A DNA stretch of 64,000 bases from Acidobacteriota bacterium (GTDB lineage: Bacteria; Acidobacteriota; Thermoanaerobaculia; UBA5066), in contig JADJVE010000007.1 in assembly GCA_016716715.1 (NCBI GenBank), forward strand, positions 125,640-189,639, read 5' to 3'. The translations under genes and the position numbers were made by a program. Below the pieces are notes generated by a model. The model did no database searches. It was not told the DNA's origin and saw only the letters and a program-made list of their open reading frames with translations. Positions 7,278 through 59,980 of this stretch are shown piece after piece; position 1 is the first letter of the stretch; each line of letters begins with the position of its first letter.

Positions 7278-8230
7278 TGGCGGACCTCGCGAGGCTGCCG
7301 CGTCTCGTCCCCGGCGACACGGTTGGCGTCGCGGCGCTGTCGGGGCCACCGGATCCGGACGCCCTCGCGGCGGGTGTCCGGGCGCTCGAGGGGTTCGGCT
7401 ACCGCGTCCGGCTCGCACCGAACGTCCTCTCGAAGGAACCGCTCCTCGGCCTCGCGGGCGCCGCCGAAGAACGCGCGGCGGGTTATCGCTCGCTACTCGT
7501 CGACCCGGGCGTGAAGGCCATCGTCTTCGCGCGCGGCGGCTACGGCGTCGCGTCCGCGCTCCCGTGCCTCGACCCGGCGGAAGCGGCCGCGCACCCGAAG
7601 ATCCACTGCGGCTTTTCGGACGTTACCGTCCTCTCCTCCTGGCTCCTGAAGGCGGGCGTGCCGTCGTTCCACGGGCCCATGGTTGCCGCCGATCTCGCGC
7701 GCGGACTCGACCCGCTCTCCGCGTCCTTCTTTCCTTCGATGCTCGAGGGGAGGGGACCCAAGGAGATTTTCTTGGAAGGTGAAGAGGGGAGAGGCGGCGC
7801 GACCGGGAGCAGCGTGCTCGTACCCGGCGCCGCCACGGGGAGGCTCGTCGGAGGCTGTCTCTCCCTCCTCGCGGCGTCCGTCGGGACGCCTTGGGAATTC
7901 GACTACTCCAACGGCCTCCTCTTCTTCGAAGACATCGCCGAGGAGGCCTATCGCATCGACCGCATGCTCGGGACCCTGATCGATTCCGGCCGATTCGCTA
8001 AACTGTCCGGCATCTTGATCGGCACGCTGTCGGCTGTCACGTTTTCGGGCGTCGAAGATTCCGAGCGGCTTCGCTCGGTCCTCACGGCCCGTCTCGCGCC
8101 CCTCGGCATCCCCGTGGCCCTCGGCCTCCCCGCCGGCCACCGCGGCTCCAACGCGACCCTGCCCGTCGGCGCCCGCGCCGCGTGGGACGGAGCCGGGACG
8201 CTCACCTTCCTCGAGGAGATTACGTCTTGA
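7274..8230 (+). CDS. ldcA: LD-carboxypeptidase (S66 family, muramoyltetrapeptide carboxypeptidase-like)
   Basis: GDTVGVAALSGPPD N-terminus, catalytic GFSDVTVL, GGCLSLL and LLFFEDIAEEAYRIDRML motifs. ATGA overlap with the upstream gene. Confidence 0.8.
   Translation: MMADLARLPRLVPGDTVGVAALSGPPDPDALAAGVRALEGFGYRVRLAPNVLSKEPLLGLAGAAEERAAGYRSLLVDPGVKAIVFARGGYGVASALPCLDPAEAAAHPKIHCGFSDVTVLSSWLLKAGVPSFHGPMVAADLARGLDPLSASFFPSMLEGRGPKEIFLEGEEGRGGATGSSVLVPGAATGRLVGGCLSLLAASVGTPWEFDYSNGLLFFEDIAEEAYRIDRMLGTLIDSGRFAKLSGILIGTLSAVTFSGVEDSERLRSVLTARLAPLGIPVALGLPAGHRGSNATLPVGARAAWDGAGTLTFLEEITS
7761..7790 (+). repeat. AT-rich dispersed repeat, forward copy inside ldcA
   Basis: AGGAGATTTTCTTGGAAGGTGAAGAGGGGA encodes KEIFLEGEEG. 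A possible degenerate reverse partner CCTCCTCTTCTTCGAAGACATC lies at 7915-7936. Confidence 0.7.
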
Positions 8231-8249
8231 AGGTCGTCGTGAAATCGGG
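8213..8249 (+). repeat. Degenerate forward copy at the ldcA stop / next gene start
   Basis: GAGGAGATTACGTCTTGAAGGTCGTCGTGAAATCGGG aligns to the consensus with small indels. Confidence 0.4.
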
Positions 8250-9009
8250 CACTCCGAGCGGCTTCGCGGACTACCTCATGAAGGCCGCGGCCGGGAAGGA
8301 CGTCTTCTCCGAGGGAGAGGTCGGCACCGAGATGTACGTCATCCAGGCCGGCACCGTCGAGATCTACAAGAAGAGCCGCAAGGGCGAGGAGAAGATTCTC
8401 GCGACGCTCGAAAAAGGCGACTTCTTCGGCGAGATGTCGATCCTCGAAGACGTCCCGCGAACGGCGTCCGCGCGCGCGAAGACCGAGTGCGAGCTCGTCC
8501 GGATCAACCAGACGACGTTCGACGAGATGCTGCGCCACAACGCGGAGATCGCCGTGCGGATGCTCCGCAAGCTCTCGCGCCGCCTGCGCGAGACGACGAA
8601 GCTCCTCGAGCAGTCGACGGGCGTCGCCCCGACGCTCGACCAGTCGTCGTCGGACATCTTCGCGAAGGAAGCCGACCGGCACGAGATCTTCCGGATCGTG
8701 GCGGACGCCGGCGGAGAATTCTTCCTGAACCGCGAGGGGGAGACCACCGTGGGGCGCATCGACCCCGTCACGGGGATCCGGCCGGACGTCGACCTCGCGA
8801 ACCTCGACACGCAGCGCTCCGTCTCCCGCCGCCATTCGAAGATCGTCCACTCCGGAAACGACTTCCGCGTCGTCGAGGAGATCGGAACCATGAACGGGAC
8901 GTTCGTGAACGGCACGCGCATCGTCACGGGCCAGCCGGTGTCGATCAAGGACGGCGACCGGATCCGCTTCGGACTCGTGGACCTCACGTTCCGCATCAGC
9001 AAGGCGTAG
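8227..9009 (+). CDS. Cyclic-nucleotide-binding domain plus FHA domain protein
   Basis: cNMP-binding core GEVGTEMYVIQAGTVEIY...GDFFGEMSILEDVPRTASARA. C-terminal FHA motif TTVGR...VSRRHSKIV...GTMNGTFVNG. The start is TTG 8227 (TTGA overlap with the ldcA stop) or GTG 8239. Confidence 0.8.
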   Translation: MKVVVKSGTPSGFADYLMKAAAGKDVFSEGEVGTEMYVIQAGTVEIYKKSRKGEEKILATLEKGDFFGEMSILEDVPRTASARAKTECELVRINQTTFDEMLRHNAEIAVRMLRKLSRRLRETTKLLEQSTGVAPTLDQSSSDIFAKEADRHEIFRIVADAGGEFFLNREGETTVGRIDPVTGIRPDVDLANLDTQRSVSRRHSKIVHSGNDFRVVEEIGTMNGTFVNGTRIVTGQPVSIKDGDRIRFGLVDLTFRISKA

Positions 9010-9014
9010 GGGTC

Positions 9015-11120
9015 ATTTCCGCTCCTCTTCCGCCCCTCGCGTCGCTGCCCGGAATCGGTCCCGCGCGCGCGAAGGAGCTGGCCGAGGCGGGCGTCGAGAC
9101 GGCGCTCGATCTCCTCCTCCACCTCCCGTTCCGGTACGAGGACCGCACGCGCATCGGACCGATCTCCGAGCTCGTCGCCGAAGGCCCGGCGACGACCGTC
9201 AAGGGAACGATCCTCTCCTCGCGCCTGATCCGGACGCGCCGGAGGGGCTTCACGATCTTCGAGGCGATCCTCGACGACGGCTCCGGCACGCTGCGCCTCG
9301 TCTTCTTCAACCAGCCGTACCTGCAGCGCTGGATGGCGCCGAAGAAGGTCTTCTGGGTTTACGGCATCGGCACACAGGCGGCGCGCTATCGACGCGGGCT
9401 CGTGATGGAGAACCCTCAAATCGAAGAGTTCTTAGAAGGTGAAGAGGGGAAGGACCCTCTTTCGGTGGGAAGGGTCGTCCCCATCTACCGAAAGTTGCCC
9501 GCGCTGACGCCGCGCTTGAGGCGGACCCTCGTCTTCCACCTTCTAAGAGATTTTGCAGACCATCTTCCCGAGCGCCTGCGCGACTCGCGAGAGAGGGAGC
9601 AGAGTCTCCCTCCCCTCGGCGAATCCCTGCGCGAGGCCCACTTTCCGGGCAGCGGCGGAGGGCCCGCGGACGCCGAGGCGTGGACGGAGCGGAAGTCGCC
9701 GCACCTGCACCGCCTCGTCTACGAGGAGTTCCTCGAGTTCCAGGTGGGCCTCCAGCGCCGCCGCGCCGAGCGCGACCGCGTGCCGGCGCCCGTCCTCGCG
9801 GCCGACGACGCGATCCGCGCGCGCCTCAAGGAAGCTCTGCCGTTCTCGCTGACGGCCGCGCAGAAACGCGTGATCCGCGAGATCGGCGAGGATTTCCGCG
9901 CGGGCCGGCCCATGCGGCGCCTGCTGCAGGGCGACGTCGGGAGCGGCAAGACGATCGTCGCCGTCCTCTCGGCCATTCTCGCGGCCGAGTGCGGCCGCCA
10001 GACCGCCCTCATGGCGCCGACCGAGATCCTCGCCGAGCAGCACTTCACGACCATCTTCCGGATCTTCGGCAAGACGCGCTTCCGCGCCGAGCTCCTGACG
10101 GGGCGCGTGAAAGGCAAGGCGCGGGCGCAGGTCCTCGACGCGCTGGCCGGCGGGCGCATCGACATGCTGGTGGGGACGCACGCGCTCCTCGAAGACCCCG
10201 TCGAGTTTCTGCGCCTCGGACTGATCGTGATCGACGAGCAGCACCGCTTCGGCGTGGCCCAGCGGACCGCCCTTGCGGCGAAGGCCGATCCCTCGGGCGC
10301 GCGCCCCCACCTCCTCGTCATGTCCGCCACGCCCATCCCGCGCTCGCTCGCCCTGACGCTCTACGGCGACCTCGACGTCTCGACGCTGGACGAGAAGCCG
10401 CCGGGCCGCACCGCGGTCACGACGCGCGTCCTGCCCGAGAGCGACCGCGCCACGGCGTTCCGCGAGATCGAGGGCGAGATCCGCGCCGGCGGCCAGGCGT
10501 ACGTCGTCGTCCCGCTCATCGAGGAGTCCGACACGATCGACGCCCGGGCGGTCGAGAAGCACGCCGGGGAGATCCGAAAGGCCCTGCCGGGCCGCCGCGT
10601 CGGCGTCCTCCACGGGCGCATCCCTCCTGACGAACGCGAGAGGACGATGGGGGAGTTCGCGGCGGGGAAGCTGGACGTCCTCGCGGCCACGACCGTCATC
10701 GAGGTGGGCGTCGACGTGCCGAACGCGTCGTACATGCTGGTCGAGAACGCGGAGCGCTTCGGCCTCGCGCAGCTCCACCAGTTGCGCGGCCGTGTCGGCC
10801 GCGGCCGGCGCACGTCGCGCTGCGTCCTCCTCTTCGGTCCGAAGACCTCGCCCGAGTCGCGGGAGCGCCTCGGCGTCCTCGAAAAGACGGACGACGGATT
10901 CGTCGTGGCCGAAGAAGATCTGAAACGCCGGGGCCCCGGCGACGCGCTCGGAACCCGCCAGAGCGGCGTCCCGATGTTCCGCATCGGGGACCTCGTCCGC
11001 GACGTCCGCTGGATGAGGGACGCGAAGGAAGAGGCGATGCGGCTCATCGCCGAAGGGCGCGACGCCGCTTTCCGCGAGCCGCTCTTCCTCCGGCCGGGGA
11101 CCGGCGCGGCGGGCGACTGA
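9015..11120 (+). CDS. recG: ATP-dependent DNA helicase RecG (start codon uncertain)
   Basis: LPGIGPARAKELAEAGVETALDLLLHLPFRYEDRT wedge/N-terminus, Walker A GDVGSGKT, DEQHRFGV, C-terminal RGPGDALGTRQSG. There is no ATG/GTG/TTG between the upstream stop (9009) and the conserved N-terminus. ATT 9015 or CTG 9045 are the only candidates. Confidence 0.85.
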   Translation: MSAPLPPLASLPGIGPARAKELAEAGVETALDLLLHLPFRYEDRTRIGPISELVAEGPATTVKGTILSSRLIRTRRRGFTIFEAILDDGSGTLRLVFFNQPYLQRWMAPKKVFWVYGIGTQAARYRRGLVMENPQIEEFLEGEEGKDPLSVGRVVPIYRKLPALTPRLRRTLVFHLLRDFADHLPERLRDSREREQSLPPLGESLREAHFPGSGGGPADAEAWTERKSPHLHRLVYEEFLEFQVGLQRRRAERDRVPAPVLAADDAIRARLKEALPFSLTAAQKRVIREIGEDFRAGRPMRRLLQGDVGSGKTIVAVLSAILAAECGRQTALMAPTEILAEQHFTTIFRIFGKTRFRAELLTGRVKGKARAQVLDALAGGRIDMLVGTHALLEDPVEFLRLGLIVIDEQHRFGVAQRTALAAKADPSGARPHLLVMSATPIPRSLALTLYGDLDVSTLDEKPPGRTAVTTRVLPESDRATAFREIEGEIRAGGQAYVVVPLIEESDTIDARAVEKHAGEIRKALPGRRVGVLHGRIPPDERERTMGEFAAGKLDVLAATTVIEVGVDVPNASYMLVENAERFGLAQLHQLRGRVGRGRRTSRCVLLFGPKTSPESRERLGVLEKTDDGFVVAEEDLKRRGPGDALGTRQSGVPMFRIGDLVRDVRWMRDAKEEAMRLIAEGRDAAFREPLFLRPGTGAAGD
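9421..9568. repeat. Convergent repeat doublet inside recG
   Basis: The forward copy is TCGAAGAGTTCTTAGAAGGTGAAGAGGGGA (9421-9450). The reverse copy is TTCCACCTTCTAAGAGATTTTGCAGACCATCTTCC (9534-9568). The 83-nt interior is GC-rich and encodes the conserved RecG segment VVPIYRKLPALTPRLRRTL. Confidence 0.8.
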
Positions 11121-13631: not shown

Positions 13632-14440
13632 CCGACGACGTCCAGGTCCCCGAGGCGCCGGCGACTCCGGCTCCGTCCGCGCCTCCGGCCCACGTGGCGC
13701 TCGTGGAAGCGCTCCTCTTCGCGTCGGGCAAGCCGGCGAGCGTCGAGCGCCTCGTCGAGGCCTCCGAGCTGACTCCCCCCGAAGTGGAGGCCGCGCTCGA
13801 GGTTCTCGAACGGGCCCTCGAGGCCGACGCGCGCGGCGTCCGGCTGGACCGCGTCGCGGGCGGGGCGCGCCTCGTTTCGCGCAACGAATTCGACGTTCCC
13901 GTGCGCAAGCTCCTCGGGCTCGAAGGCAAGAACAAGCTCTCGATGGCGAGCCTCGAGACGCTCTCGATCATCGCGTACCGCCAGCCCGTCACGGCGCCCG
14001 AGATCGCCGAGCTGCGCGGGGTGAACTCGGCGTCCTCGCTCCGGACGCTGCTCGACAAGAAGCTCATCACGACGGCCGGCCGCAAGGAAGTCGTCGGGAC
14101 GCCGTTCCTCTACAAGACGACGAAGGAGTTCCTCGTCCACTTCGGCCTCGACGACGTCAAGGACCTCCCGAAGCCGGAAGACCTCGACGCGCTCTACGGC
14201 GTCGAGACGACCTCGACGCGCTGTTTCGGCGCCGAGACGAAAAAAGAAAAGAGGAAGATTCTTCGAATGGTTAATCCCGAGGACCGACGCCCCGAAGCCG
14301 GAGGCGCCCGGAGCATCCTTCAAAGGAATCGTCTCTTCGGACTCTTCCCATGCCCGCTGAGCGTCTCCAGAAGCTCCTGTCCGCCGCCGGCATCTCCTCG
14401 CGGCGCGAGGCGGAGAAGATCATCCTCGAGGGCCGGGTGA
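13628..14440 (+). CDS. scpB: Segregation and condensation protein B, with an unusually long C-terminal tail reading through a repeat doublet
   Basis: VEALLFASGKPASVERL, LSMASLETLSIIAYRQPVTAPEIAELRG, GTPFLYKTTKEFLVHFGL. There is no in-frame stop until 14440, which is 91 nt inside rluB. Confidence 0.75.
   Translation: MTDDVQVPEAPATPAPSAPPAHVALVEALLFASGKPASVERLVEASELTPPEVEAALEVLERALEADARGVRLDRVAGGARLVSRNEFDVPVRKLLGLEGKNKLSMASLETLSIIAYRQPVTAPEIAELRGVNSASSLRTLLDKKLITTAGRKEVVGTPFLYKTTKEFLVHFGLDDVKDLPKPEDLDALYGVETTSTRCFGAETKKEKRKILRMVNPEDRRPEAGGARSILQRNRLFGLFPCPLSVSRSSCPPPASPRGARRRRSSSRAG
14239..14349. repeat. Convergent repeat doublet between the scpB core and rluB start
   Basis: The forward copy is GAAAAAAGAAAAGAGGAAGATTCTTCGAATGGTTAATCCCGAGG (14239-14282). 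The reverse copy is CATCCTTCAAAGGAATCGTCTCTTCGGACTCTTCCC (14314-14349). Confidence 0.75.
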
Positions 14441-22946: not shown

Positions 22947-23824
22947 AATCCATGACCGGGTTCGGCAAGGCGGCCGGCACGCTGCCCGACGGCACCGAGG
23001 TGAGCGTCGTCGTGAAGGGCGTGAACCACCGCTTCCTCGATCTCGGCCTCAAGCTCCGCGACGAGTACGCCTCGGCCGAGCCCGCGATCCGCAGAGCGGT
23101 GGCGAAGGTCGTACAGAGGGGTCACGTCGACGTGCTGATCCGGACCACGAAACCCGCGAGCGCGGCCGCAACGGCCCGCATCGACATGGACGCCGCGGAG
23201 AAATATGCGAGGGAGTGGAGAGAAGATTCTTTGAAAAGGGGATTGCCGGCGGATCTCTCGGCGAGGGACCTCCTCGCGCTGCCGGGGGTCGTGCGGTCGG
23301 ACGACGCCGGAGCCGCGCCTGATTCCACTTTCGAAGAATCTCTTCTTCCGATCGTCGATGAAGCCCTCCAGGACTTCGATGCCGCCCGGGCGCGCGAAGG
23401 GGCCGCTCTCTCTCTTACCTTCAAAGAAATTCTTCAAAGGATCGACGCCGGGGTGGCCCGTCTCGACGCGGAACGAGTCGGCATTTCCGACCGCATTCAA
23501 AGCAATCTCCGAGAGCGCATCGAGAAGCTGGCCGCCGGCATCCCGCTCGACGAGGGGCGGCTCGCTCAGGAAGTCGCCCAGCTGGCGGACCGCGCGGACA
23601 TCACGGAGGAGATCGACCGGTTGAAGACGCACCTCACGGAGGCGAGGCGTCTCCTCGCGGCGGACGGCGCGATCGGCCGCCGCCTCGACCATCTCGCGCA
23701 GGAGCTGCATCGCGAGGTCAACACGTCCGGCTCCAAGGTGCGGGAGGCGGGCGCGACGAAGCTCGTCCTCGACCTGAAGTCCGAGCTCGAAGCCTTCAAG
23801 GAACAGGTCCAGAACGTCGAATGA
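22943..23824 (+). CDS. yicC: YicC/YloC family stress-induced protein (endoribonuclease)
   Basis: MKSMTGFG N-terminus, VNHRFLDL, C-terminal EEIDRLKTHL...REVNTSGSK. Confidence 0.8.
   Translation: MKSMTGFGKAAGTLPDGTEVSVVVKGVNHRFLDLGLKLRDEYASAEPAIRRAVAKVVQRGHVDVLIRTTKPASAAATARIDMDAAEKYAREWREDSLKRGLPADLSARDLLALPGVVRSDDAGAAPDSTFEESLLPIVDEALQDFDAARAREGAALSLTFKEILQRIDAGVARLDAERVGISDRIQSNLRERIEKLAAGIPLDEGRLAQEVAQLADRADITEEIDRLKTHLTEARRLLAADGAIGRRLDHLAQELHREVNTSGSKVREAGATKLVLDLKSELEAFKEQVQNVE
23218..23440. repeat. Three repeat copies inside yicC (one forward, two reverse)
   Basis: The forward copy is GAGAGAAGATTCTTTGAAAAGGGGATTGCC (23218-23247). The reverse copies are GATTCCACTTTCGAAGAATCTCTTCTTCCG (23321-23350) and CTCTCTCTCTTACCTTCAAAGAAATTCTTCAAAGG (23406-23440). 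Confidence 0.75.
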
Positions 23825-23834: not shown

Positions 23835-24458
23835 ATGACCCGCGGAGACCTCTTCATCGTCTCGTCCCCGTCCGGGGCCGGCAAGACCACGCTGATCCGC
23901 CGCGTCCTCGAGGACCCGCGGATCGGCGGCACGCTGCACTTCTCCGTGTCGCACACCACGCGCCCGCCGCGCGCCGGGGAGACGTCCGGCGTCGAGTACC
24001 ACTTCTGCGACGAGGCCGCGTTCCGCCGTCTCGAGAGCGAGGGGGGCTTCCTGGAGTGGGCAACGGTGCACGGGAATCTCTACGGGACGTCGCGCGGGGA
24101 AGTCGAGCCCCGACTCGAGAAGGGCTTCGACGTCCTTCTGGACATCGACGTCCAGGGCGCCCGCCAGGTGCGGTCCTCGGTCCCCGAAGCCGTCAAGGTC
24201 ATCGTCTTTCCACCCTCGCGGGAGGTCCTCGAGGCCCGGCTGAAGGCGAGGGCCTCCGACGCTCCCGAGGTCGTGGCCCGGCGCCTCGCCGTGGCGGCCA
24301 AGGAGATGGCCGAGTTCGGCGAGTACGACTATGCGATAATCAACGACAGCCTCGAGCCCGCGGTGGACGAGCTTCGCTCGATCATCGTGGCGCGCCGCGC
24401 AGGACGCGGGCGGAGGCGCGAGCGCCTCGAAGCGATTCTCAAGACTTTTGCACCCTGA
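23835..24458 (+). CDS. gmk: Guanylate kinase
   Basis: LFIVSSPSGAGKTTL, SHTTRPPRAGE..GVEYHF, EWATVHGNLYGTS. Confidence 0.9.
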   Translation: MTRGDLFIVSSPSGAGKTTLIRRVLEDPRIGGTLHFSVSHTTRPPRAGETSGVEYHFCDEAAFRRLESEGGFLEWATVHGNLYGTSRGEVEPRLEKGFDVLLDIDVQGARQVRSSVPEAVKVIVFPPSREVLEARLKARASDAPEVVARRLAVAAKEMAEFGEYDYAIINDSLEPAVDELRSIIVARRAGRGRRRERLEAILKTFAP

Positions 24459-24714: not shown

Positions 24715-24794
24715 CCCTCCACGTCTGACCCGCTGGCTGATCTTCTCGCCTACTACCGCGACCTCGGGGTCGCGGAGCTGTACCTGGAGAAGGC

Positions 24795-24999
24795 GGAAAG
24801 AGAAGAAAGAGAAGAGAAGATTTCTTTGAAGGTGAATAGGGCAGGGGGCGGCGCCGCAGCAGGAAATGCACCGCTTGCGCAGACCGCTGCGACGCCTTCT
24901 TTCACCTTCGAAGAAAATGCGCCCTATCCCGCCGCTTCGAAGTCCACGCGAAGCGCTTCTGCGTCGGACCTGCCGTCCTTAGCAAAAGAAGTTTCTTCC
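24795..24999. repeat. Repeat cluster at the 5' end of udg (forward, reverse, reverse-variant)
   Basis: The forward copy is GGAAAGAGAAGAAAGAGAAGAGAAGATTTCTTTGAAGGTGAATAGGGCAGGGGG (24795-24848). The reverse copy is CCTTCTTTCACCTTCGAAGAAAATGC (24895-24920). The variant is GTCCTTAGCAAAAGAAGTTTCTTCC (24975-24999). Confidence 0.8.
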
Positions 25000-26195: not shown

Positions 26196-28597
26196 CGCGC
26201 CGGGTCGGCCTCCTCCTTCCGAACCGTTTTCCGGGCCTCCCGTCTTACCGGCTGCCCGACGACGCGGGCGAGCCCGTCCTCGGCGCGCGTGTCGCCGCAC
26301 CCTTCGGGAGCGCGCTCGTCACGGGGCTCGTGGCCGACCTCGACCCGCCTCCGCCTCCCGAGGGGACGACGGAGCGGGACGTCGTCGCGCTCCTCGAGGA
26401 CGATCCGTTCCTGCCTCCGGCGCTCGTCCAGGTGCTCGTCCGCGCCGCCGCGTACTACGTCGTCGCGCCGGGGGAGATGCTGCGCGCGGCCGTTCCCGGC
26501 CGACTGCTCGGCGGAAGCGAAGCCGTCTACGTTGCCGGGAGCGCGGCGGTGGGCGCGTCCGTCGCGGGGATCCCCGGCGACGTGCTTTCCCTGCTTCTCG
26601 AGCGCGGCGAGGCAAGGCTGCCCGAACTCGTCGAGGCGCTCGGGCGAAGGGGCCTTGCTTCCGCGCTCAAGGAGCTGGTTGGAAAGGGATACGCGCGCAT
26701 CCGTTCGGAGCACCTGCGGGCGGCCGCGGCCCCTTCCGACCGCGCGTGGATGGCGCGGCCGGCGCCGGACGATCACCCGGCGTTCGCCCGCGCGCCGAAG
26801 CGGAGGGCGCTCCACGCCCACCTTCTCGCGCTCGGCAGACCCGTTTCGCCCGAGGAGCTGCGCACGGCGGGAAGCACTCCCGCCGTGCTCGCCGCGCTCG
26901 CGAAGGCCGGCGTCGTCGTCGCCGTGGAGACGGAGCGTCGCGTGGACCTCGCGCGGCACGTCGGGGCCGCCGGCGCCGATCGCCGCCCGGTGCCGACGCC
27001 CGCGCAGCACGACGCGATCGCGGCGGTGGCCGTGTCCGTGTCGGCGCGCGGCGCGCGGGAGTTCCTCCTCGACGGCGTCACGGGCAGCGGCAAGACCGAG
27101 GTTTACCTCAACGCCCTCGAGCAGGCGGTCGCCGCCGGCCGGCGCGGAATCCTGCTGGTCCCGGAAATCGCGCTCGCACCCGCGCTCGTGCGCCGGCTCG
27201 TCGCGCGTTTCGGGGATCGGGTCTCGCTGCTGCACAGCGGCCTGTCGGACGGCGAGCGCGCGTCCGAGTGGGAGCGCGCGCGCCGGGGCGACGTCGACGC
27301 CGTCGTCGGTCCGCGCTCGGCGGTCTTCGCGCCGCTGCCGGACCTCGGCCTGATCGTGATCGACGAAGCGCACGACGCGTCGTACAAGCAGGCCGAGTCC
27401 CCGCGCTACGACGCGCGCGACGTCGCCCGCGTGCGGGCGAAGGAGGAGGGCGCGACGGTGGTCTTCGGGTCCGCGACGCCGTCGATGGAGCTCGAGCGCG
27501 CCGCGCGCGAGGCCCGTCTCCCGCGGCTCGTCCTCCCGGAGCGTCCGGGCGCCCGGCCGCGCGCGGCCGTCGAGGTCGTGGATCTGCGCGGCGAAACCGC
27601 GCAGGAAGGCGACCACGGGCGCGTGCTCTTCGCGGCGCGCACGGTGGAGATCCTCCGCGCGTGTTTCGACCGCGGCGAGCAGGCGATCGCGCTCCTGAAC
27701 CGGCGGGGCTTCTCGCCGTCTCTCCTGTGCCGGGCGTGCGGCGAGGACTTCCGCTGCCGAAACTGCTCGGTCGCGCGCACGTACCACCGCCGCAACGAGC
27801 GCCTCCTTTGCCACTACTGCGGCGACGACATCCGCCGGCCCCCGAAGTGCCCGGCTTGCGGGTCGGACGCGCTGCAGCCCGTCGGCTTCGGGACCGAGCG
27901 CCTCGCCGAGCGCTTCGCCGAGACGTTCCCCGGAATCTCGTATGCCGTTCTGGATCGCGACGCCGCCGCGCGGCGGGGCGGCGCCGCGGGCGTCCTCATG
28001 GACTTCGAGTCCGGGAAGTCGCAGGCGCTCCTCGGGACGCAGATGGTCGCCAAGGGTCACGACTTCCCGAACGCGACGGCGCTGGCGGTGCTGGACGCGG
28101 ACGCGCTGCTCTCTTTCCCGGATTTCCGGGCTGCCGAGAAGACGTTCCAGCTCGTGACGCAGGCGGCCGGGCGCGTGGGGCGCGGCGAGAAGCCGGGAAT
28201 CGTCGCGGTCCAGACTTCGCGTCCGGATCACGAGGCGATCCGCGCTGCGGTGAAGCAGGACCACGTCGCGTTCGCGGACGCCGAGCTGCGCTTCCGCAAG
28301 GCGTTCCGCTATCCGCCGTACACGCGGCTGCTGCTCGCGCTCTTCGCGGACACGGACCTCGCGAAGGCGCACCGCGCGGCGGGGGAGGCGTTCACGGCGC
28401 TGTCGTCCTCGCCGGTCGCGGCGCGGGTGAAGCTCCTCGGCCCCGCGCCCGCGCCGCTCGAGCGTCTGAAAGGTCTCTGGCGCTACCAGCTCATCGTCAA
28501 GGCCGAGAAGCGCGAGGCGATCGCGGAAGCCGCGCGCATCCTCGCGTCGCTGCCGGACCCGCCGAAGCTGGACGTCGACCCGCAGAACCTGCTCTAG
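26192..28597 (+). CDS. priA: Primosomal protein N' (replication restart helicase PriA), start uncertain
   Basis: GARVAAPFGSALVTGLV, Walker A GVTGSGKTEVY, DEAHD, Cys-rich zinc insertion CRACGEDFRCRNC...CHYCG...CPACGS. The only start near the conserved N-terminus is CTG 26192, which forms a CTGA overlap with the upstream stop. Confidence 0.85.
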   Translation: MTRRVGLLLPNRFPGLPSYRLPDDAGEPVLGARVAAPFGSALVTGLVADLDPPPPPEGTTERDVVALLEDDPFLPPALVQVLVRAAAYYVVAPGEMLRAAVPGRLLGGSEAVYVAGSAAVGASVAGIPGDVLSLLLERGEARLPELVEALGRRGLASALKELVGKGYARIRSEHLRAAAAPSDRAWMARPAPDDHPAFARAPKRRALHAHLLALGRPVSPEELRTAGSTPAVLAALAKAGVVVAVETERRVDLARHVGAAGADRRPVPTPAQHDAIAAVAVSVSARGAREFLLDGVTGSGKTEVYLNALEQAVAAGRRGILLVPEIALAPALVRRLVARFGDRVSLLHSGLSDGERASEWERARRGDVDAVVGPRSAVFAPLPDLGLIVIDEAHDASYKQAESPRYDARDVARVRAKEEGATVVFGSATPSMELERAAREARLPRLVLPERPGARPRAAVEVVDLRGETAQEGDHGRVLFAARTVEILRACFDRGEQAIALLNRRGFSPSLLCRACGEDFRCRNCSVARTYHRRNERLLCHYCGDDIRRPPKCPACGSDALQPVGFGTERLAERFAETFPGISYAVLDRDAAARRGGAAGVLMDFESGKSQALLGTQMVAKGHDFPNATALAVLDADALLSFPDFRAAEKTFQLVTQAAGRVGRGEKPGIVAVQTSRPDHEAIRAAVKQDHVAFADAELRFRKAFRYPPYTRLLLALFADTDLAKAHRAAGEAFTALSSSPVAARVKLLGPAPAPLERLKGLWRYQLIVKAEKREAIAEAARILASLPDPPKLDVDPQNLL

Positions 28598-29535
28598 GAG
28601 CGCCGGACCTCGAGGACGAGATACGGGTTCAGAGGCGTCCCGGCGAGCCACGTGAAGCCCGGCACCGCTGTGAGCGCGTAGAAACCCGCCATCGGCGCGC
28701 GAAACGCCCTGCCGTACCAGTGCGCGCCGACCTGGTTGAAGCGCAGCCGCCGGTGGGGAGAGCGGACGGAAACGCGGTACTCGGGGCCGACGGACCTCGC
28801 AAGCGCGGCGATCTCGTTCACTTTCGGAAGAAATCCTTCGAAGGGTGAATGAATTCTGGCGCCACCCGCGCTGGTGCCGTGCCAGAAGTCGATCGGGAAG
28901 GCGCCGTTCGGGAAGTCGAGATAGAGGGCGCCGCCGGGCGCCACGACCCGGACAAGACCCGCGAGGAAGTCCCGGCGCCTCTCGTCGCGGTCGGGGAGGG
29001 GAGAAACCTCGTAAGACCCGGGGCCGCCTCGCTCGGCGACGCCGACGTGCTCGAGGACGCCCGAGGAGATCACGGCGTCGAAGTAGCCGTCTGAAAACGG
29101 CAAGCGCAGACCGTCTGCGACGACGAGCCGCTCGCGGTGCGCGCGCGAACGCCACTGCCATTTGCGAAACGCGGAGAGGTCGTGCCCCCACGCCTCGAGC
29201 CCCGCCTCCGACAGAGTGTCGATCGCCTCGCCGTTTCCGCAGCCGGAGTCGAGGACGCGCCGCGCGCCCGTCGCGAGGAGGAGCGGCAGATAGTAGTCCT
29301 CGATCCGCCGCCCTGCATTCTCGTTCTCGTATCCGCGGAGCGCCTCCGCGGATAGCGACGACGGGTCTGCGTGATCGTCGAAATACCGCCCTTCGGCGAA
29401 GTCCGCGATGCCGTCATCCACGGGGAATGAGCGGTCGCAGCTCAAACACGCGAGCGCGGAAGACGACGCCGAAAGCGCGCCGTGGCAAGCCGGGCAGGCG
29501 AGGCTCGATGAGCGCAATGCTGCTTTCTCCTCCAT
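28594..29535 (-). CDS. Class I SAM-dependent methyltransferase with N-terminal Trm112-like zinc ribbon
   Basis: CPACHGAL...CLSCDRSFPVDDGIADF followed by VLDSGCGNGE (motif I). It is the only minus-strand gene in the first 54 kb. Confidence 0.75.
   Translation of the reverse strand: MEEKAALRSSSLACPACHGALSASSSALACLSCDRSFPVDDGIADFAEGRYFDDHADPSSLSAEALRGYENENAGRRIEDYYLPLLLATGARRVLDSGCGNGEAIDTLSEAGLEAWGHDLSAFRKWQWRSRAHRERLVVADGLRLPFSDGYFDAVISSGVLEHVGVAERGGPGSYEVSPLPDRDERRRDFLAGLVRVVAPGGALYLDFPNGAFPIDFWHGTSAGGARIHSPFEGFLPKVNEIAALARSVGPEYRVSVRSPHRRLRFNQVGAHWYGRAFRAPMAGFYALTAVPGFTWLAGTPLNPYLVLEVRRS
28815..28859. repeat. Compact palindromic copy inside the minus-strand methyltransferase gene
   Basis: CGTTCACTTTCGGAAGAAATCCTTCGAAGGGTGAATGAATTCTGG. 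The TTCAC...GTGAA ends face outward, which is the opposite polarity to the other doublets. Confidence 0.6.
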
Positions 29536-47757: not shown

Positions 47758-49119
47758 GTGAGCGTGAATCCCGATCTCAAGGGCGGCCGCCGTGTCTTCG
47801 TCGAGACGTGGGGCTGCCAGATGAACGTCCTGGACGGGCGGCGCTTCGCGGGCCTCCTCGCGCGCGACGGGTACGACGAGACGTTCGACGAGTCGGACGC
47901 CGACGTCTTCATCCTCAACACCTGCTCCGTGCGCGACAAGGCGGAGCAGAAAGTCTACGACCGAGTCGGACGCCTTGCGAAGCTCAAGCGGGCCAAGCCG
48001 GGGCTCGTGCTCGGCGTGTGCGGCTGCGTGGCCCAGCAGGAGGGCGAGTCGCTCCTCGAGCGCCTGCCCGCCGTCGACTTCGTCCTCGGGACCGGCCGCA
48101 TCGAGACGCTGCCGTCCGTGCTGCGGCGCGTCCGCGAGGAGGGCGATCGGCCGTGCGACACGGGTTTCGACACGGGCGAGGTCGTGTACACGCCCGGCGC
48201 CATCGCGCGCCTCGTGAGACACCGTGCGTCGATCACGGTGATCGAGGGCTGCAACAAGAACTGCACGTTCTGCGTCGTCCCGCAGACGCGCGGGCGCGAG
48301 CGCAACCGGCGCCTCGCCGACGTCGTGGAGGAGAGCCGCCGGCTGCTCGCAGACGGCGTCGTCGAGCTCGAGCTGCTCGGGCAGACCGTCAACGCGTTCC
48401 GCGATCCCGTCACCGGCGAGGACTTCGCGGACCTCGTCCGCGCGGTGGGCGCGCTGCCGGGGCTCCGCCGCCTGCGCTTCGTGACCTCGCACCCGAAGAA
48501 CTTCGACACGAAGCTCATCGACGCGATGGCCGACACCGCCACCGTCGCTCCGTACCTTCACCTGCCGGTCCAGTCGGGGTCGGACGCCGTCCTCAGGCGC
48601 ATGAAGCGCCAGTACACACGCGCCGAGTACGTGGATCTCGCGGGACGCCTCCGCGACCGTCTCCCGGGCCTCGCGCTCTCCACGGACGTCATCGTCGGAT
48701 TTCCGGGGGAGACCGAGGTGGATTTCGAGGACTCGCTGTCGCTGCTCACCGAGCTGCGGTTCGCGCTCATCTATTCGTTCACGTACTCGCCCCGGCCCGA
48801 CACGGCCGCCGCCCGGTGGGAGCACGACGTCCCGCCCCGCGAGGCGTCGCGCCGACTGGCGGCGCTGATGGACCTGCAGCAGGAGATTCAGCGAGAGACT
48901 CACCGGCGCCTGGAGGGCCGGGTGATGGAGGTCCTCGTCGAAGGACTGGACCGGAAGGGCGTCCGGAGCTCGGGCCGGTCGCTGTGCAGCCGGGTCGTGA
49001 ACATCGCGCAGCCGGAAGGGGAGCCTCCGATCCCGCCGGGATCGTTCGTGAACGTGCTGATCGAGCGCGGCTACCCGAATTCGCTGCTCGGAAGAGAGAT
49101 TTTTGCTTTCGGAAAATAG
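47758..49119 (+). CDS. miaB: tRNA-2-methylthio-N6-dimethylallyladenosine synthase
   Basis: VFVETWGCQMNV, ILNTCSVRDKAEQK, radical SAM CNKNCTFCVVP, C-terminal TRAM domain. Confidence 0.9.
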   Translation: MSVNPDLKGGRRVFVETWGCQMNVLDGRRFAGLLARDGYDETFDESDADVFILNTCSVRDKAEQKVYDRVGRLAKLKRAKPGLVLGVCGCVAQQEGESLLERLPAVDFVLGTGRIETLPSVLRRVREEGDRPCDTGFDTGEVVYTPGAIARLVRHRASITVIEGCNKNCTFCVVPQTRGRERNRRLADVVEESRRLLADGVVELELLGQTVNAFRDPVTGEDFADLVRAVGALPGLRRLRFVTSHPKNFDTKLIDAMADTATVAPYLHLPVQSGSDAVLRRMKRQYTRAEYVDLAGRLRDRLPGLALSTDVIVGFPGETEVDFEDSLSLLTELRFALIYSFTYSPRPDTAAARWEHDVPPREASRRLAALMDLQQEIQRETHRRLEGRVMEVLVEGLDRKGVRSSGRSLCSRVVNIAQPEGEPPIPPGSFVNVLIERGYPNSLLGREIFAFGK

Positions 49120-49233
49120 ATTTCGTCGAATGGTTAATAAAGAGGGGTGGCACGACCCCGCTGCGGGTCGGCATGTCGCGTGTTGCGGCCCGCTCCTAAA
49201 CCTCTCTAAGCAAATCTCTTAGGTGCTCTTCGG
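49089..49233. repeat. Repeat doublet spanning the miaB 3' end and the miaB-BFN intergenic region
   Basis: The tandem forward copies are GGAAGAGAGATTTTTGCTTTCGGAAAATAG and ATTTCGTCGAATGGTTAATAAAGAGGGG (49089-49147). The reverse copy is AACCTCTCTAAGCAAATCTCTTAGGTGCTCTTCGG (49199-49233). Confidence 0.75.
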
Positions 49234-49834: not shown

Positions 49835-49859
49835 ATCATGCGCATCTCTCTCGCATGAT
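49835..49859 (+). promoter_or_regulatory. 8-bp perfect inverted repeat spanning the parA start codon, with a 6-codon upstream mini-ORF
   Basis: ATCATGCG (49835-49842) pairs with CGCATGAT (49852-49859). ATG 49838 opens MRISLA-stop, and its TGA overlaps the parA ATG at 49855. Confidence 0.3.
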
Positions 49860-50616
49860 CATCACAGTCGCGAACCAGAAAGGCGGAGTGGGGAAGACCA
49901 CGACGGCGATCAACATCGCCGCCGCCTTCGCGCAGAAGGGTCTTCGCACCCTTCTCATCGACCTCGATCCCCAGGGGAACTCCACGATGTCCTTCATCGA
50001 CCGGAAGGAGATCGGGAAGTCGATGTACGACGTCCTCACGGACCCGGCGACGTCGATCTTCGAGATCATCCGGCCGGCCGCTCTGCCGAAGCTCACCATC
50101 GCCCCGGCTCGCATCGCTCTCGCGAAGGTCGAGTCGAAGCTCCTCGGCGAGCTCGACGGCCACTTCCGCCTCAAGGACAAGCTCCAGGTCGTGAAGGAGT
50201 CGGGGGAGTACGACGCGATCATCATCGACACGCCGCCGACGCTGGGAATGATCACGGTGAACGCGCTCGTGGCGTCGTCCCACATCCTCATTCCGATCCA
50301 GTCGTCCTACTTCGCTCTCGAAGGCACGGACGACCTTCTCGAGACGATCGAGAAGATCAAGGGCCGCCCGAATCCGAACCTCCAGATTCTCGGCGTGGTC
50401 ATCACGCTGCACGACCGGCGCACAACGCTCGGGCGCGACATTCAGGCCCAGATCGACGAAGTCTTCAAGGGCAAGGTTTTCAAGACGACGATCTCGAAGT
50501 CCATTCGTCTCGAGGAATCCCCGGCGTACAAGGAATCCATCTTCACGTTCGCTCCGCGCTCGTCAGGCGCGCTCGAGTACTACAGCCTGACGGAGGAGAT
50601 CCTCTCCCGTGTCTAA
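49855..50616 (+). CDS. parA: Chromosome partitioning ATPase ParA/Soj
   Basis: IITVANQKGGVGKTTTAINIAAAFA, IIIDTPPTLG. Confidence 0.9.
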   Translation: MIITVANQKGGVGKTTTAINIAAAFAQKGLRTLLIDLDPQGNSTMSFIDRKEIGKSMYDVLTDPATSIFEIIRPAALPKLTIAPARIALAKVESKLLGELDGHFRLKDKLQVVKESGEYDAIIIDTPPTLGMITVNALVASSHILIPIQSSYFALEGTDDLLETIEKIKGRPNPNLQILGVVITLHDRRTTLGRDIQAQIDEVFKGKVFKTTISKSIRLEESPAYKESIFTFAPRSSGALEYYSLTEEILSRV

Positions 50617-51508
50617 GCGTCGCGGCCTCCCCGAAACATCCCGCATGCGCCACGATTCGCACTTCGTCGAGCAGCTCGTGCGGGCGGACGAACTGCCCGT
50701 CGGGCGGCGCATCCCGATCCACCTCATCGAGGCGAACCCGGACCAGCCCCGTAGCTCGATGGGCGACCTTGCCGAGCTCACGAAGTCGATCACCGACAAG
50801 GGCGTTCTCGAGCCGATCCTCGTGCGCCCTCGTGAAGACGGCCGCTACACGATCATCTCCGGCGAACGGCGCTTCCGGGCGTCGCTCGACGCCGGCCTCA
50901 CGGAGATTCCGTGCATCGAGATGGAGATCTCCGACAGCGAAGTCCTCGAGATCGCCCTCGTTGAGAATCTCCAGCGCAAGGATCTCAGCCCGTTCGAGGA
51001 AGCCGACGGATACCGCGCGCTGCAGGAGCGGCACGCGTACACGCACGTTCAGATCGCGGATGCCGTGGGGAAGTCGCGCGTCACGATCACGGAGGCCCTC
51101 GCGATCGGCAGGCTGCCTGAGGCCGTCAGGGAGGAATGTCGGCGCGCCGACATCCAGTCCCGTTCCTTCCTCCTCGAGCTCGGCCGCCTCAAGGACGAGG
51201 ACCTCATGCTTGCCATGGTCGCCGCGATGGCGAGGGGCGAAGACGTGAGCCGCGACGTCCTGCGCGAGGCGAAGGGCGCTGCACGCCGGGGCGCCACGCC
51301 TGCCAAACCGGGAGCGATGAAGCGCGCGTACACGCTCGATTACGCTCCCGAGGATCGTCGCTACAAGGTGAGCCTCGTCCTCAAGGGAAAGCTCCACAGG
51401 AAGGACGAGATCCTCGAAGCGATCCGCGACCTGGCGCGCCGCATTGAAGCGGGCGACATCGACCTCGAGTCCCAGGGCCGCTTCGTCAAAGCGAAGCCGA
51501 AGAAGTAG
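50609..51508 (+). CDS. parB: Chromosome partitioning protein ParB/Spo0J
   Basis: GVLEPILVRP...YTIISGERRFRAS, ALVENLQRKDLSPFEEA, HTH segment QIADAVGKSRVTITEAL. Confidence 0.9.
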   Translation: MSKRRGLPETSRMRHDSHFVEQLVRADELPVGRRIPIHLIEANPDQPRSSMGDLAELTKSITDKGVLEPILVRPREDGRYTIISGERRFRASLDAGLTEIPCIEMEISDSEVLEIALVENLQRKDLSPFEEADGYRALQERHAYTHVQIADAVGKSRVTITEALAIGRLPEAVREECRRADIQSRSFLLELGRLKDEDLMLAMVAAMARGEDVSRDVLREAKGAARRGATPAKPGAMKRAYTLDYAPEDRRYKVSLVLKGKLHRKDEILEAIRDLARRIEAGDIDLESQGRFVKAKPKK

Positions 51509-51513: not shown

Positions 51514-51817
51514 GAAGAGAACCAGAGAGAACGAAGAGAAGATCTTCCTAGAAGGTGAAGAAGGGGCCAGGCGCCGCGTAACCGCCGCACGCGCAGACGA
51601 CAGAGGCGCCCCCCACACGTTCTAGGAATATCTCCGACGCCCGCTCCCGGTTCGAGAAGCCTAATAAATTCAGGCCTGGCGTCCCTCGTATTTAACATAA
51701 TAAATATTATCGGACGTTGCCTATTGGCGCCGGAATCCGGTCATGCAGCAGCTCGTGGCGCGGCGAATAGCCCGCTGAAGCCCTCTTAACCTTCTAAGAA
51801 AATCTTTGTCCTCTTCC
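51514..51817. repeat. Repeat doublet flanking an extremely AT-rich core between parB and lptFG
   Basis: The forward copy is GAAGAGAACCAGAGAGAACGAAGAGAAGATCTTCCTAGAAGGTGAAGAAGGGG (51514-51566). The reverse copy is CCCTCTTAACCTTCTAAGAAAATCTTTGTCCTCTTCC (51781-51817). The interior holds CCTAATAAATTC and TATTTAACATAATAAATATTATC. Confidence 0.8.
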
Positions 51818-54134: not shown

Positions 54135-56489
<2,355 letters not shown>

Positions 56490-57696: not shown

Positions 57697-57752
57697 GAAA
57701 TGTCTCCGCGCCGCGTGCGGCGAAAGGCGGATGTTAGCAGGCGGGAAATCGG

Positions 57753-58274
57753 TCAGGGACGGTAGATCAGGAACCGCGTGAGGCCGTAGCGGCGGCGGTC
57801 GGACGGCGAAACGCCGCCTGGAGAGAGTTCGGAATCGTCGCCGCGTTCGTGGAACAGCCACCCGCCGACCACGACGACCGAGAGAAGGAGTTGAAGATCG
57901 GATTCGGAAGAGATTTCTTTGAAAGGGGGATCGTGGAAGACCACGTCGAACGAGGCACGTCCGGGCGCAAATCTTCCTGCGGACATCACCTCGAGCCGCG
58001 ACGTGGCCGTTGCGCCGAGACGCTCCACGTTCCCCCTCAAGACCTCCGCGACCTTCCGATCCGCTTCGACGAACGTCGCGTGCGCCGCGCCCCGCGAGAG
58101 GGCCTCGAGCCCGTACGCCCCTGAGCCGGCGCACGCGTCGAGGACGCGCGCACCGCGGATCGCGTCCCCGAGGATGTCGAACGCCGCCTTGCGTGCGACC
58201 TCCGTCGTCGGCCGGATCCCATCCGGCACCTCGAGCTTCCGCCCGCGCCACTCCCCTGCCGTGATGCGGACCAC
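57753..58274 (-). CDS. rsmD: 16S rRNA (guanine966-N2)-methyltransferase
   Basis: [41 protein letters not shown]. Confidence 0.85.
57881..57931 (+). repeat. Forward copy inside rsmD (gene on the opposite strand)
   Basis: GAGAGAAGGAGTTGAAGATCGGATTCGGAAGAGATTTCTTTGAAAGGGGGA. Read on the minus strand it encodes the catalytic DPPF motif followed by [10 protein letters not shown]. Confidence 0.65.
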
Positions 58275-59036
58275 CTAGTGCCGCCTTGCGGGGGGAACCG
58301 GCGTCGGGGCCGGCCCCACCTTCTCGGGATTCTCGAAAAGCCGCGCAATGTCCCCCCGGTAGAGGAAGAGGCGCATCTTGTGGCTGCCGTCGCCCCCCGT
58401 AACGGCCATCTCCTCGAGCTCGAAGTCGTGGTCGAGCACGTCGTCGTGGACGATGCGGTACCAGACGCCGTCGGACCGCTTCTTCAGGAGAGACCCGGCC
58501 TTGAGGCCCTTCGTGTCCCAGTTGATCTCGGACGGGTCCTCCTTCTCGAAGCGCGCTCGCAGGTCCTCGATGGCGCCCCGCGCATGCCCGACGGCGAGCG
58601 GGAGGGTCGAGAGCTCGTCGAATGGGTATGCCCGGATCTTCCCCGGCCCGTCCGCGATCTCCAGCCGCATGCGTCGGGCGGCCGAGTCGCCCAGCACCAT
58701 GCGGGCCGGATCCTCGACGTCGCGCCGCTCCACGACGAGCGCGTCCTGGCAGACCCGCTTGATGACCTCGAGCTCCTGCTGCGAGACGGTTCGACGCTCC
58801 ATCGTGTCGACTCCGCGGAAGCTCAGGATCTTCACGAGCGTGCCGTCGTCGAAGAGCGCCGTGCGCTCGCGGCCGACGCCCTGCCACGACTCGAGCGCGA
58901 TGACGAGGCGGGGATTCCGGATCTCCGGAGTCCGCGTGGGCGTGACCGTGGCGGTCGGCGTCGGCGTGAGCGTCGGGAACGGCGCTTCGCCCGGCGCAAA
59001 CGCGAGCGCGGCCGCGAGGACGAAGAAAACGCTCAC
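58275..59036 (-). CDS. Secreted hypothetical protein
   Basis: Signal peptide [14 protein letters not shown] followed by a PT-rich linker. It abuts the rsmD start and overlaps the cca-like stop. Confidence 0.55.
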
Positions 59037-59980
59037 GAGGGGACCCCGGCCGCGCGCCGGAGCGCGCGCGAGAAGTTGAGACGCGCGGCGGCGGCGGCGC
59101 GCTCGGGCCCCGGCAGGGGCTCGAGGAGCCGGCGCCAGATTTCCTCTTGCTTCGGACGCGCATCCGCCGCAAGGGGCTCGTCGAGCGATCTCGAAGCATC
59201 GGAACCGATGGTTGAAGATTTCTTAGAAGGTGAATGGGAGCCCGCCCAGCCTGGAAGCACATCGCCGAAGAGTTCGAGCTCCGCCGCGAGCCCAACCGCC
59301 TGGCCCCAATTACCTTCTAAGAAAATCTCTTCGATCCCTCTTCTCATTCGGTCGCCCGAAAGGCGACCGAATGCATCTCCCTTTCGTGCCGCTTTCAGAG
59401 CCTTTCCGAACTCCGCGTCCCAGGCGAAGCCAAGCCGCACCGCGTACTTCACCGCGCGGTACGCGCGCGTGGGGTCGTCGACGAGGGACTTCGCGTGCAG
59501 GAGCCGCAGGGTCTTCGCCGCGAGGTCGCGCTTGCCGCCGAAGGGGTCGAGGGTCGCGCCGACGAGGCCGCGCTTCCCGATGCGCCGCGCCATCGCGTGG
59601 ATCGTGAAGTCCCGTCGCCCGAGGTCGTCGTCGATCGTGGCCGTGCCCGTCACGACGGGCAGGCTCGCGGGCGCGGGGTATTCCTCGCGCCGCGTCGCCG
59701 CGAGGTCGACGCGCAGGCCGCCGGGCGCTTCGAGCGTCGCCGTTCCGAATCGCTCGTGCCGCGCCTTGAGCGTCCAGCCCGGGAGCGCCGCGAGGCGGGA
59801 GGCGAGCTCCAGCGCGCTCGCGGCCCCCGCCTCCACGGCGAGGTCGACGTCTTTCGTCGGGCGCCCGAGCAGCAGGTCGCGCAGCGCGCCTCCAACGAGC
59901 CAGAGTCCCATCTCGCGGCGCTCCGCCGCCTCGCCGATCCGGGCGAGAAACGGCCGGAGGTCTTCCGCGTCCGGCGTCAT
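59033..59980 (-). CDS. Poly(A) polymerase / CCA-adding tRNA nucleotidyltransferase family protein (head domain only, no HD domain)
   Basis: [58 protein letters not shown] overlap with the dnaE stop. Confidence 0.75.
59214..59346. repeat. Convergent repeat doublet inside the cca-like gene
   Basis: The forward copy is GAAGATTTCTTAGAAGGTGAATGGGAGCCC (59214-59243). The reverse copy is AATTACCTTCTAAGAAAATCTCTTCGATCCCTCTTCTC (59309-59346). On the minus strand the copies encode [13 protein letters not shown] and [11 protein letters not shown]. Confidence 0.8.

Follow-up and report, generated by a model that had tools for sequence, protein, structure and literature searches.

A 26-nt motif arranged in convergent doublets throughout the genomes of one Thermoanaerobaculia lineage: a candidate paired DNA recognition site

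A stretch of 64,000 nucleotides from an Acidobacteriota bacterium (Thermoanaerobaculia, UBA5066; GenBank assembly GCA_016716715.1, contig JADJVE010000007.1, positions 125,640 to 189,639; hereafter the window, in whose numbering all coordinates are given) carries a dispersed AT-rich motif of 26 nt. The unit of this family is a convergent doublet, in which two copies, hereafter arms, face each other across 60–250 bp of unrelated, locus-specific sequence. The motif is confined to one lineage of Thermoanaerobaculia of about 70% GC and occurs throughout its genomes. Its arms arise and persist by point substitution, even in essential genes, altering amino acids, and the constraint on them acts on DNA. 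We regard these repeats, with moderate confidence, as paired recognition sites in duplex DNA for a putative protein reader, and not as a mobile element or a structured RNA.

The window has a GC content of 70%. The 13-mer core of the motif, TTCTTAGAAGGTG, was matched 15 times on its two strands at ≤2 mismatches, where 100 dinucleotide shuffles predict 0.30 and never exceed 2, and 23 times at ≤3 mismatches, against a shuffle mean of 4.5. The top four over-represented 9-mers of the window, 50–105-fold above Markov expectation, all come from the motif (TTCTAAGAA, TTAGAAGGT). A 26-nt position weight matrix (PWM), derived from 213 unique motif instances, gave 16 matches of ≥10 bits in the window and about 40 of ≥0 bits, against about 2 in shuffles. 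A preliminary description made by inspection had reported a recurrent AT-rich motif in this GC-rich DNA, and shuffle counts, 9-mer ranking and PWM scan all bear it out. The consensus of the 213 instances, GAAGATTTCTTNGAAGGTGAAGAGGG, is AT-rich and asymmetric. Its center, TTCTTNGAAGGTG, is almost invariant, and only TTCTNAGAA is palindromic. The flanks are strongly conserved, the outer one being purine-rich over about 18 nt and the inner one very G+C-rich and T-poor over about 12 nt; conservation is highest at the center and fades outward without a sharp terminus.

Scored with the PWM, 14 of the 24 positions listed previously are strong copies of 18–46 bits (7761, 9421, 9534, 23321, 23406, 24795, 24895, 51514, 51781, 54131, 54164, 57881, 59214 and 59309). 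Six more (14239, 14314, 23218, 28815, 49089 and 49199) are weak, at 3.6–12.6 bits, and lie above the background of −4.9 bits given by the 95th percentile of random 75-nt windows; orthologues back 14239/14314 and 23218. Positions 8213, 20536, 24975 and 44858 found no support in the PWM; 44858 instead resembles a Shine-Dalgarno-like sequence shortly before ptsI begins. Copies absent from the earlier list were found at 51609–51634 and, more weakly, at 7914–7939 and 60139–60164, all on the reverse strand. The gaps noticed earlier, from about 29 to 49 kb and before 7.7 kb, hold: no copy of ≥10 bits lies in 28.9–49.1 kb or before 7.7 kb, the former interval containing a single borderline match (1.4 bits) at 29524.

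Arrangement of the arms is strongly polar. Adjacent PWM matches lay ≤300 bp apart in 93/103 convergent pairs compared with 5/62 divergent pairs. An opposite-strand partner, often degenerate, was present 40–260 nt inward of 72–83% of strong arms (n = 226), against 2–7% in the equivalent outward stretch. In 66 non-orthologous doublets the arm-to-arm distance had a median of 89 bp (interquartile range 73–143) and a floor of about 59–61 bp, and no periodicity of 10–11.5 bp was detected in it. The eight convergent doublets of the preliminary description, with the GGTGAAGAGGG end facing inward, thus proved to exemplify a rule that extends across the family, although the near-obligatory nature of pairing had escaped it. 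The opposite polarity claimed for position 28815 is also real, this being a divergent, overlapping pair. The copies in the window, with their PWM scores, are as follows.

7763–7788, forward strand: ldcA forward arm, in the linker that joins the two S66 domains (N- and C-terminal); 39.0 bits.
7914–7939, reverse strand: ldcA weak arm over codons for LFFEDIAE, paired with 7763 from 151 nt inward of it; 9.8 bits.
9423–9448, forward strand: recG forward arm, encoding IEEFLEGEEG, with no insertion relative to E. coli RecG (9wm0); 39.9 bits.
9530–9555, reverse strand: recG reverse arm, encoding LVFHLLRDF, counterpart of E. coli LTDQALDLL; 29.4 bits.
14253–14278, forward strand: degenerate forward arm at the scpB 3' end (GAAGATTCTTCGAATGGTTAA), conserved across the lineage; 6.4 bits.
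14308–14333, reverse strand: degenerate reverse arm a short way before rluB, which starts at 14350; 7.8 bits.
23221–23246, forward strand: yicC site 1, degenerate forward arm, WREDSLKRGL; 3.8 bits.
23319–23344, reverse strand: yicC site 2, reverse arm, TFEESLL; 23.9 bits.
23409–23434, reverse strand: yicC site 3, reverse arm, LTFKEIL; 36.2 bits.
24816–24841, forward strand: forward arm in the N-terminal linker region of a family-4 uracil-DNA glycosylase (UDG); 45.8 bits.
24896–24921, reverse strand: reverse arm of the UDG doublet; 32.3 bits.
28812–28853, both strands: divergent, overlapping (back-to-back) weak pair in a methyltransferase gene (28594–29421, reverse strand); 7.4 bits (reverse) and 12.6 bits (forward).
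49116–49141, forward strand: degenerate forward arm over the stop codon of a miaB/rimO-like radical SAM gene (TTCGTCGAATGGTTAA); 9.0 bits.
49193–49218, reverse strand: degenerate reverse partner, in the gap before a bifunctional-nuclease gene; 3.6 bits.
51539–51564, forward strand: forward arm 31 nt past the parB stop; 30.3 bits.
51609–51634, reverse strand: reverse arm with a TTCCT variant in common with 51539; 15.5 bits.
51781–51806, reverse strand: reverse arm located 28 nt before lptF/G begins; 38.2 bits.
54138–54182 (54138–54163 forward, 54157–54182 reverse): tight doublet between the convergent genes lptF/G and ahcY; 21.6 and 18.1 bits.
57909–57934, forward strand: single arm inside rsmD (57753–58274, reverse strand), antisense; 19.1 bits.
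59214–59239, forward strand: arm in a gene of the CCA-adding/poly(A) polymerase family (cca; 59033–59980, reverse strand); 44.1 bits.
59304–59329, reverse strand: second arm in the same gene, aligned without insertion with LEKILEEKNPL of T. maritima (3h37); 34.6 bits.
60139–60164, reverse strand: weak single copy inside dnaE, a core match with 2 mismatches; 7.0 bits.

The gene map and Pfam agreed with the preliminary description in placing copies in both coding and intergenic DNA. Gene ldcA (LD-carboxypeptidase) spans 7274–8230, with Pfam domains over residues 17–134 and 188–302. The rsmD product gave a full-length Pfam match to Cons_hypoth95 without insertion, and no partner was found for its arm, the best inward score being −7.6. 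In yicC, a further weak convergent pair, 23424–23449 (forward strand, 3.7 bits) and 23485–23510 (reverse strand, 9.0 bits), follows directly after the arm at 23409, so that the gene may contain two doublets.

Orthologues of the genes that carry arms were compared. YicC is 290–301 amino acids long in all relatives aligned or searched, and its match is full length in sister lineages too. In a codon alignment of yicC, the lineage showed the motif codons AGA GAA GAT TCT TCG AAA AGG GGA TTG at one of the three sites, and ACC TTC GAA GAA ATC and TCT CTT ACC TTC GAA GAA ATC at the other two. At the same columns sister lineages encode WREAAARTGLP, DEAVLEAL and ALAAALAVIL with GC-rich codons, and the A/T-ending codons of site 1, conserved in 25 genomes, are absent from them. 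The peptide EEIFLEGE is thus not merely a conserved protein motif, an objection raised in the preliminary description, since sisters differ in both peptides and codons at the same positions. Its claim of in-frame copies inside conserved genes was verified for recG, yicC and cca. RecG aligned with the E. coli protein with gaps of only 1–2 residues across the doublet, whose interior is the canonical PVYPTTEGV...LRKL segment. Elsewhere, doublets flank the conserved cores of Ser/Thr kinases, AlaRS and LigA (AlaRS and LigA being named by sequence motif only). Kinase paralogues with and without a doublet are equal in length: those on other contigs of the lineage carry one in the kinase N-lobe, and the two kinases of the window, of the same length, do not. 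These two genes are themselves paralogous, with N-terminal regions (29750–30186 and 63562–63999) 73–81% identical in DNA.

Inverted arms at the ends of a short segment recall the terminal inverted repeats of miniature inverted-repeat transposable elements (MITEs), Rickettsia palindromic elements (RPEs) or elements of the type of the repetitive extragenic palindromic doublets forming hairpins (REPINs), and insertion of such mobile elements in frame could be envisaged. The scpB-rluB junction offers a second argument for this, in that the reverse arm and a spacer of 10–110 nt are present or absent among close relatives. There, the whole lineage retains the forward arm, which includes the scpB stop codon in relatives; reverse arm and spacer occur in most genomes (orthologous arms of 18–33 bits in loci L127, L128, L138, L139, L142 and L149) and are missing in L125, L131, L135 and L144, a pattern that looks like repeated loss rather than insertion. 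Against mobility, the lengths of yicC, recG, cca and the kinases are unaltered; 92 doublet interiors fell into 66 clusters, of which those shown join orthologous loci, with no interior homology between loci; target-site duplications were not seen at any offset; no autonomous partner or transposase-like gene lay between longer convergent pairs; the outward fading of conservation leaves the arms without a sharp terminus; and arms occupy orthologous positions across the genomes of the lineage. MITEs and RPEs were accordingly rejected on orthologue and PDB alignments, interior clustering, the search for target-site duplications and the gene search between long pairs, and a mobile origin of any of these kinds is scarcely credible. 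The preliminary description was right to exclude REP elements, bacterial interspersed mosaic elements (BIMEs), clustered regularly interspaced short palindromic repeats (CRISPR) and ordinary MITEs, and its own candidate, a REPIN- or RPE-like repeat, falls with them.

Several observations locate the constraint in DNA. The fraction of A or T at third codon positions was 0.58 under the motif codons of yicC and 0.13 elsewhere in the gene, and the A/T-ending motif codons were retained at 83–100% across the 25 genomes; arms inside genes thus override a strong bias towards G or C at third positions. In the UDG linker both arms are conserved, the forward one being found in relatives and lying in frame in both L001 and L003. 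The interior between them diverges freely in sequence at a nearly constant length (43–56 nt, mostly 54). Called genes contain 224/361 copies (62%), and the other 38% lie in 9% of the sequence, an intergenic enrichment of about 4-fold. Copies occur in five of the six reading frames. Frames that create TAG or TGA are under-used, which accounts for the higher scores of antisense arms (31.7 vs 26.2 bits) and for the excess of antisense over sense orientation among unpaired intragenic copies (76 to 30). Once gap length is taken into account, intergenic doublets are about equally frequent in gaps of the tandem, divergent and convergent types, and neither a sigma-70-like promoter nor a terminator-like site was called in 51.4–51.9 kb, the parB-lptF gap; a terminator or promoter role was ruled out on these grounds.

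Doublets could instead act through base pairing between their arms, as long RNA hairpins (RNase III sites, mRNA stabilizers or terminators) or as DNA cruciforms. Well-matched doublets do fold as long hairpins with stems of 20–26 bp (z = −3 to −5), including the tight pair at 54138–54182 between convergent genes (z = −4.5), and a TTCCT variant occurs in both arms of 51539/51609. Such folding is, however, expected because both arms match the consensus: the degenerate doublet at 14232–14346 folds no better than shuffles (z = −0.09), and comparison of 90 pairs with randomly re-paired arms disclosed no arm-to-arm covariation across about 16 variable positions. The arms of a pair follow the consensus independently, indicating that the sequence of each arm is read, and not the pairing between arms. 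A need for hairpins would, moreover, equally admit divergent pairs, yet these are almost absent; doublets are also found in divergent intergenic gaps and inside genes, no terminator-like T-run accompanies them, and no Rfam family was called at them. Action by base pairing is for these reasons improbable.

A further candidate of the preliminary description was a regulon of invertons, with the arms as inverted-repeat targets of a site-specific recombinase, in and between genes. Convergent, asymmetric sites of about 26 bp with a minimum spacing of about 60 bp are reminiscent of the synapsis limits of recombinases, and intragenic invertons have been reported in other bacteria. However, the interior was inverted relative to its flanks in 0/27 orthologous doublet pairs (consensus assemblies would hide minority orientations), and interiors include the conserved cores of RecG, AlaRS, LigA and kinases, essential proteins among them, whose inversion would inactivate the protein. 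The variable central position was the same in both arms in 32% of cases against 31% expected, and the window holds no recombinase gene. To our knowledge, several hundred or more invertons with one consensus would be unprecedented. These observations lend the proposal no support and make it very unlikely.

The phylogenetic range of the motif was delimited with 80 loci collected via YicC alignment, one genome per species (loci are designated by L and a number). The YicC homologues belong to Thermoanaerobaculia, and only metagenome-assembled genomes and metagenome contigs match; the window's own YicC was not found among recorded sequences. Most genomes with a YicC identity of at least about 69% (roughly 69–94%; L125–L150 and L169) carry the motif, L133 and L139 having no core match at ≤2 mismatches. 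Among the 80 loci it is absent from the sister lineages L151–L168, whose GC content (70–74%) is the same as that of carriers, and from anything more distant. No other iterated word, or 'dialect', was detected in about 140–300 kb per group of sister lineages. A 19-mer scan of metagenomes found at least about 90 high-GC contigs, most of them, among the matches listed, without homology to the window; the family is therefore genome-wide, not regional. An origin-proximal, parS-like local cluster was ruled out on the same evidence. Arm density is one per 4 kb in the window and in yicC loci and one per 6 kb in the metagenome contigs (selected match masked), from which several hundred or more sites per genome are estimated by extrapolation. 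In viral contigs, the 19-mer was found in low-GC contigs only, with no high-GC viral contig carrying it, and a 15-mer pattern gave only chance matches among the matches listed. None of the papers in the library searched contains the motif in a microbial context, or connects this lineage with uptake sequences or a repeat of this kind.

A block at about 29700–34450, comprising a Ser/Thr kinase gene with a PD40 beta-propeller (29750–32380), a gene for a radical SAM protein (32643–33962) and small ORFs, is absent in relatives, in which accA comes immediately after the methyltransferase gene. No motif copy of ≥10 bits falls within the block.

Sites of the parS or Noc type, that is, 16-bp ParB-binding palindromes related to TGTTNCACGTGAAACA with a few to tens of copies, were considered and rejected: an asymmetric motif found at intervals of about 4–6 kb does not match that description. 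Canonical parS (TGTTNCACGTGAAACA) was found neither in the 64-kb window (≤3 mismatches) nor in 1.08 Mb of lineage DNA (≤2 mismatches), though parA and parB are present in the window (49855–51508).

Two candidates of the preliminary description survive: a sequence resembling a DNA uptake signal, and sites bound by a regulator or nucleoid protein. The former, in which the motif is a kin-recognition sequence and preferential uptake by the competence machinery, followed by recombination, spreads better matches by molecular drive, is one specific functional reading of the paired-recognition-site explanation. It is consistent with the density of copies, their occurrence in both orientations, the intergenic enrichment, the restriction to one lineage, the absence from the island at 29.7–34.4 kb that relatives lack and the lack of high-GC viral contigs with the 19-mer. 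Origin by substitution points the same way: uptake signal sequences (USS) and DNA uptake sequences (DUS) arise by substitution inside genes at poorly conserved residues and alter peptides (Findlay and Redfield, PMC2817400), as arms do here. Against it stand the convergent pairing of about 80% of arms, with its spacing floor of about 60 bp, the lack of a competence gene in the window and the core-gene stretch of 15 kb at 34.5–49 kb that has no copy. Known uptake sequences are single cores of 9–12 nt, among which inverted pairs are a minority and closely spaced. A role in uptake seems unlikely, though it deserves to be taken seriously.

As paired recognition sites in duplex DNA, the doublets would function as follows. 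One lineage-specific and sequence-specific protein or complex would bind each arm, and the two bound arms would be read together, probably on a folded-back DNA loop; reading on such a loop would explain why the polarity is fixed inward and why the spacing has a lower bound of about 60 bp. The sites might be maintained by selection for a chromosome-wide role, either in folding or in marking the cell's own DNA, or by a biased-transmission drive such as that of DNA uptake sequences. More tentatively, the doublets could represent a new class of chromosomal element, in which a predicted lineage-specific protein reads two convergent 26-bp sites together on a short folded-back loop. Its sites would have spread through the genome by substitution, at the expense of codon bias and protein sequence even in essential genes, and the element would either mark 'own DNA' by a paired signature in exchange or repair of DNA, or anchor the folding of the chromosome.

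A number of observations weigh against recognition of this kind. Strong doublets fold as long hairpins, which makes a structural role of the best-matched pairs conceivable. The arms of 51539/51609 share a variant, and position 3 of the covariation test reached z = 5. The spacing lacks the 10.5-bp helical phasing that classical protein-mediated loops often show. A 26-bp site in many hundreds of copies, costly in coding DNA, is hard to maintain by ordinary per-site selection, and the copy-free 15-kb core-gene region makes the distribution uneven. A Pfam search of the window found no recombinase, transposase, REP-associated tyrosine transposase (RAYT) or competence gene that might supply the reader protein.

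Some other features of the window and its relatives deserve mention. A bacterial RNase P RNA of class A (5143–5540, forward strand; 269 bits, full length) lies between a kumamolisin-like protease gene and the next ORF. In relatives, coaBC (410 amino acids) stands between rpoZ and the UDG gene (L001, 11769–13001; L003, 11766–12998); at 24715–24815 of the window coaBC is missing, and the N-terminal region of UDG, with its doublet, comes straight after rpoZ. Within gmk, conservation of the DNA itself extends to the codons TAC GAC TAT GCG ATA ATC AAC GAC (YDYAIIND; 24323–24346), those ending in A or T among them, once per locus and in motif-bearing and sister lineages alike. Between the arms of the parB-lptF gap, positions 51650–51720 are very AT-rich (CCTAATAAATTCAGG...TATTTAACATAATAAATATTATCGG), with no sigma-70-like promoter, terminator or Rfam family called. 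The PHP-domain ORF of dnaE (62478–63527) and the remainder of the gene (59977–62475) do not share a reading frame (region at about 62480–62980, reverse strand), so that a frameshift or a misassembly must lie somewhere from the PHP domain to 62560.

Few words are known to be imposed on whole bacterial genomes, coding regions included, at the DNA level, among them USS/DUS, HIP1, Chi and the FtsK-orienting polar sequences (KOPS), and each of these exposed a basic mechanism of uptake, repair or segregation. The motif described here is longer and more specific than these, and paired with fixed polarity. It visibly alters proteins that are otherwise conserved (YicC, RecG, CCA enzyme, kinases and, identified by sequence motif only, AlaRS and LigA) and points to a putative DNA-reading machine in widespread uncultured Acidobacteria of soil, peat and sediment, in whose genomes it can serve in practice to guide binning and to reveal DNA of foreign origin.

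The motif shares many traits with USS/DUS of Haemophilus/Pasteurellaceae and Neisseria, which are present in hundreds to thousands of copies on both strands of coding and non-coding DNA, are clade-specific, substitution-derived and peptide-changing, and are missing from recently acquired genes (PMC2817400). Over-representation on both strands in coding and non-coding DNA, origin by substitution and sharing by related species were all found here. By contrast, the unit is not a single core of 9–12 nt but an asymmetric site of 26 nt, almost always in a convergent pair 60–250 bp apart. HIP1 (GCGATCGC) of cyanobacteria, whose function was unclear for decades and which is now tied to methylation and transformation (PMC5861425; bioRxiv 10.1101/2024.09.10.611283), is likewise a hyper-abundant word in and between genes that is conserved under selection. 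Unlike the motif, however, it is a short perfect palindrome of 8 bp tied to methyltransferases, without paired architecture or polarity, whereas here only TTCTNAGAA is palindromic.

Resemblance to other repeats is mainly architectural. RPEs, Correia elements and other MITEs are units of about 100–150 bp bounded by inverted repeats, some of them in frame in genes, but they are insertions with shared interiors and defined ends, and the doublets show neither insertion nor shared interior nor target-site duplication. REP, BIME and REPIN sequences are also short dispersed repeats, often in inverted pairs and with a lineage-specific consensus; they are, however, extragenic, hairpin-forming palindromes linked to RAYT, whereas most copies here are intragenic, as confirmed for recG, yicC and cca, single arms do not form hairpins and selection does not act on their pairing. 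In invertons, including intragenic ones, inverted repeats similarly flank short segments, sometimes inside genes, but no inversion was seen among the 27 orthologous doublet pairs compared, and interiors are conserved protein cores. The doublets are also unlike structured RNAs or terminators, in view of the lack of covariation, terminator-like sites and Rfam matches and of their presence in genes and divergent gaps. The motif fits no known class of bacterial repeat; it can best be seen as a paired form of DNA signature word, a rare genome-wide class, in which the obligate polar pairing and the 26-nt asymmetric site are new.

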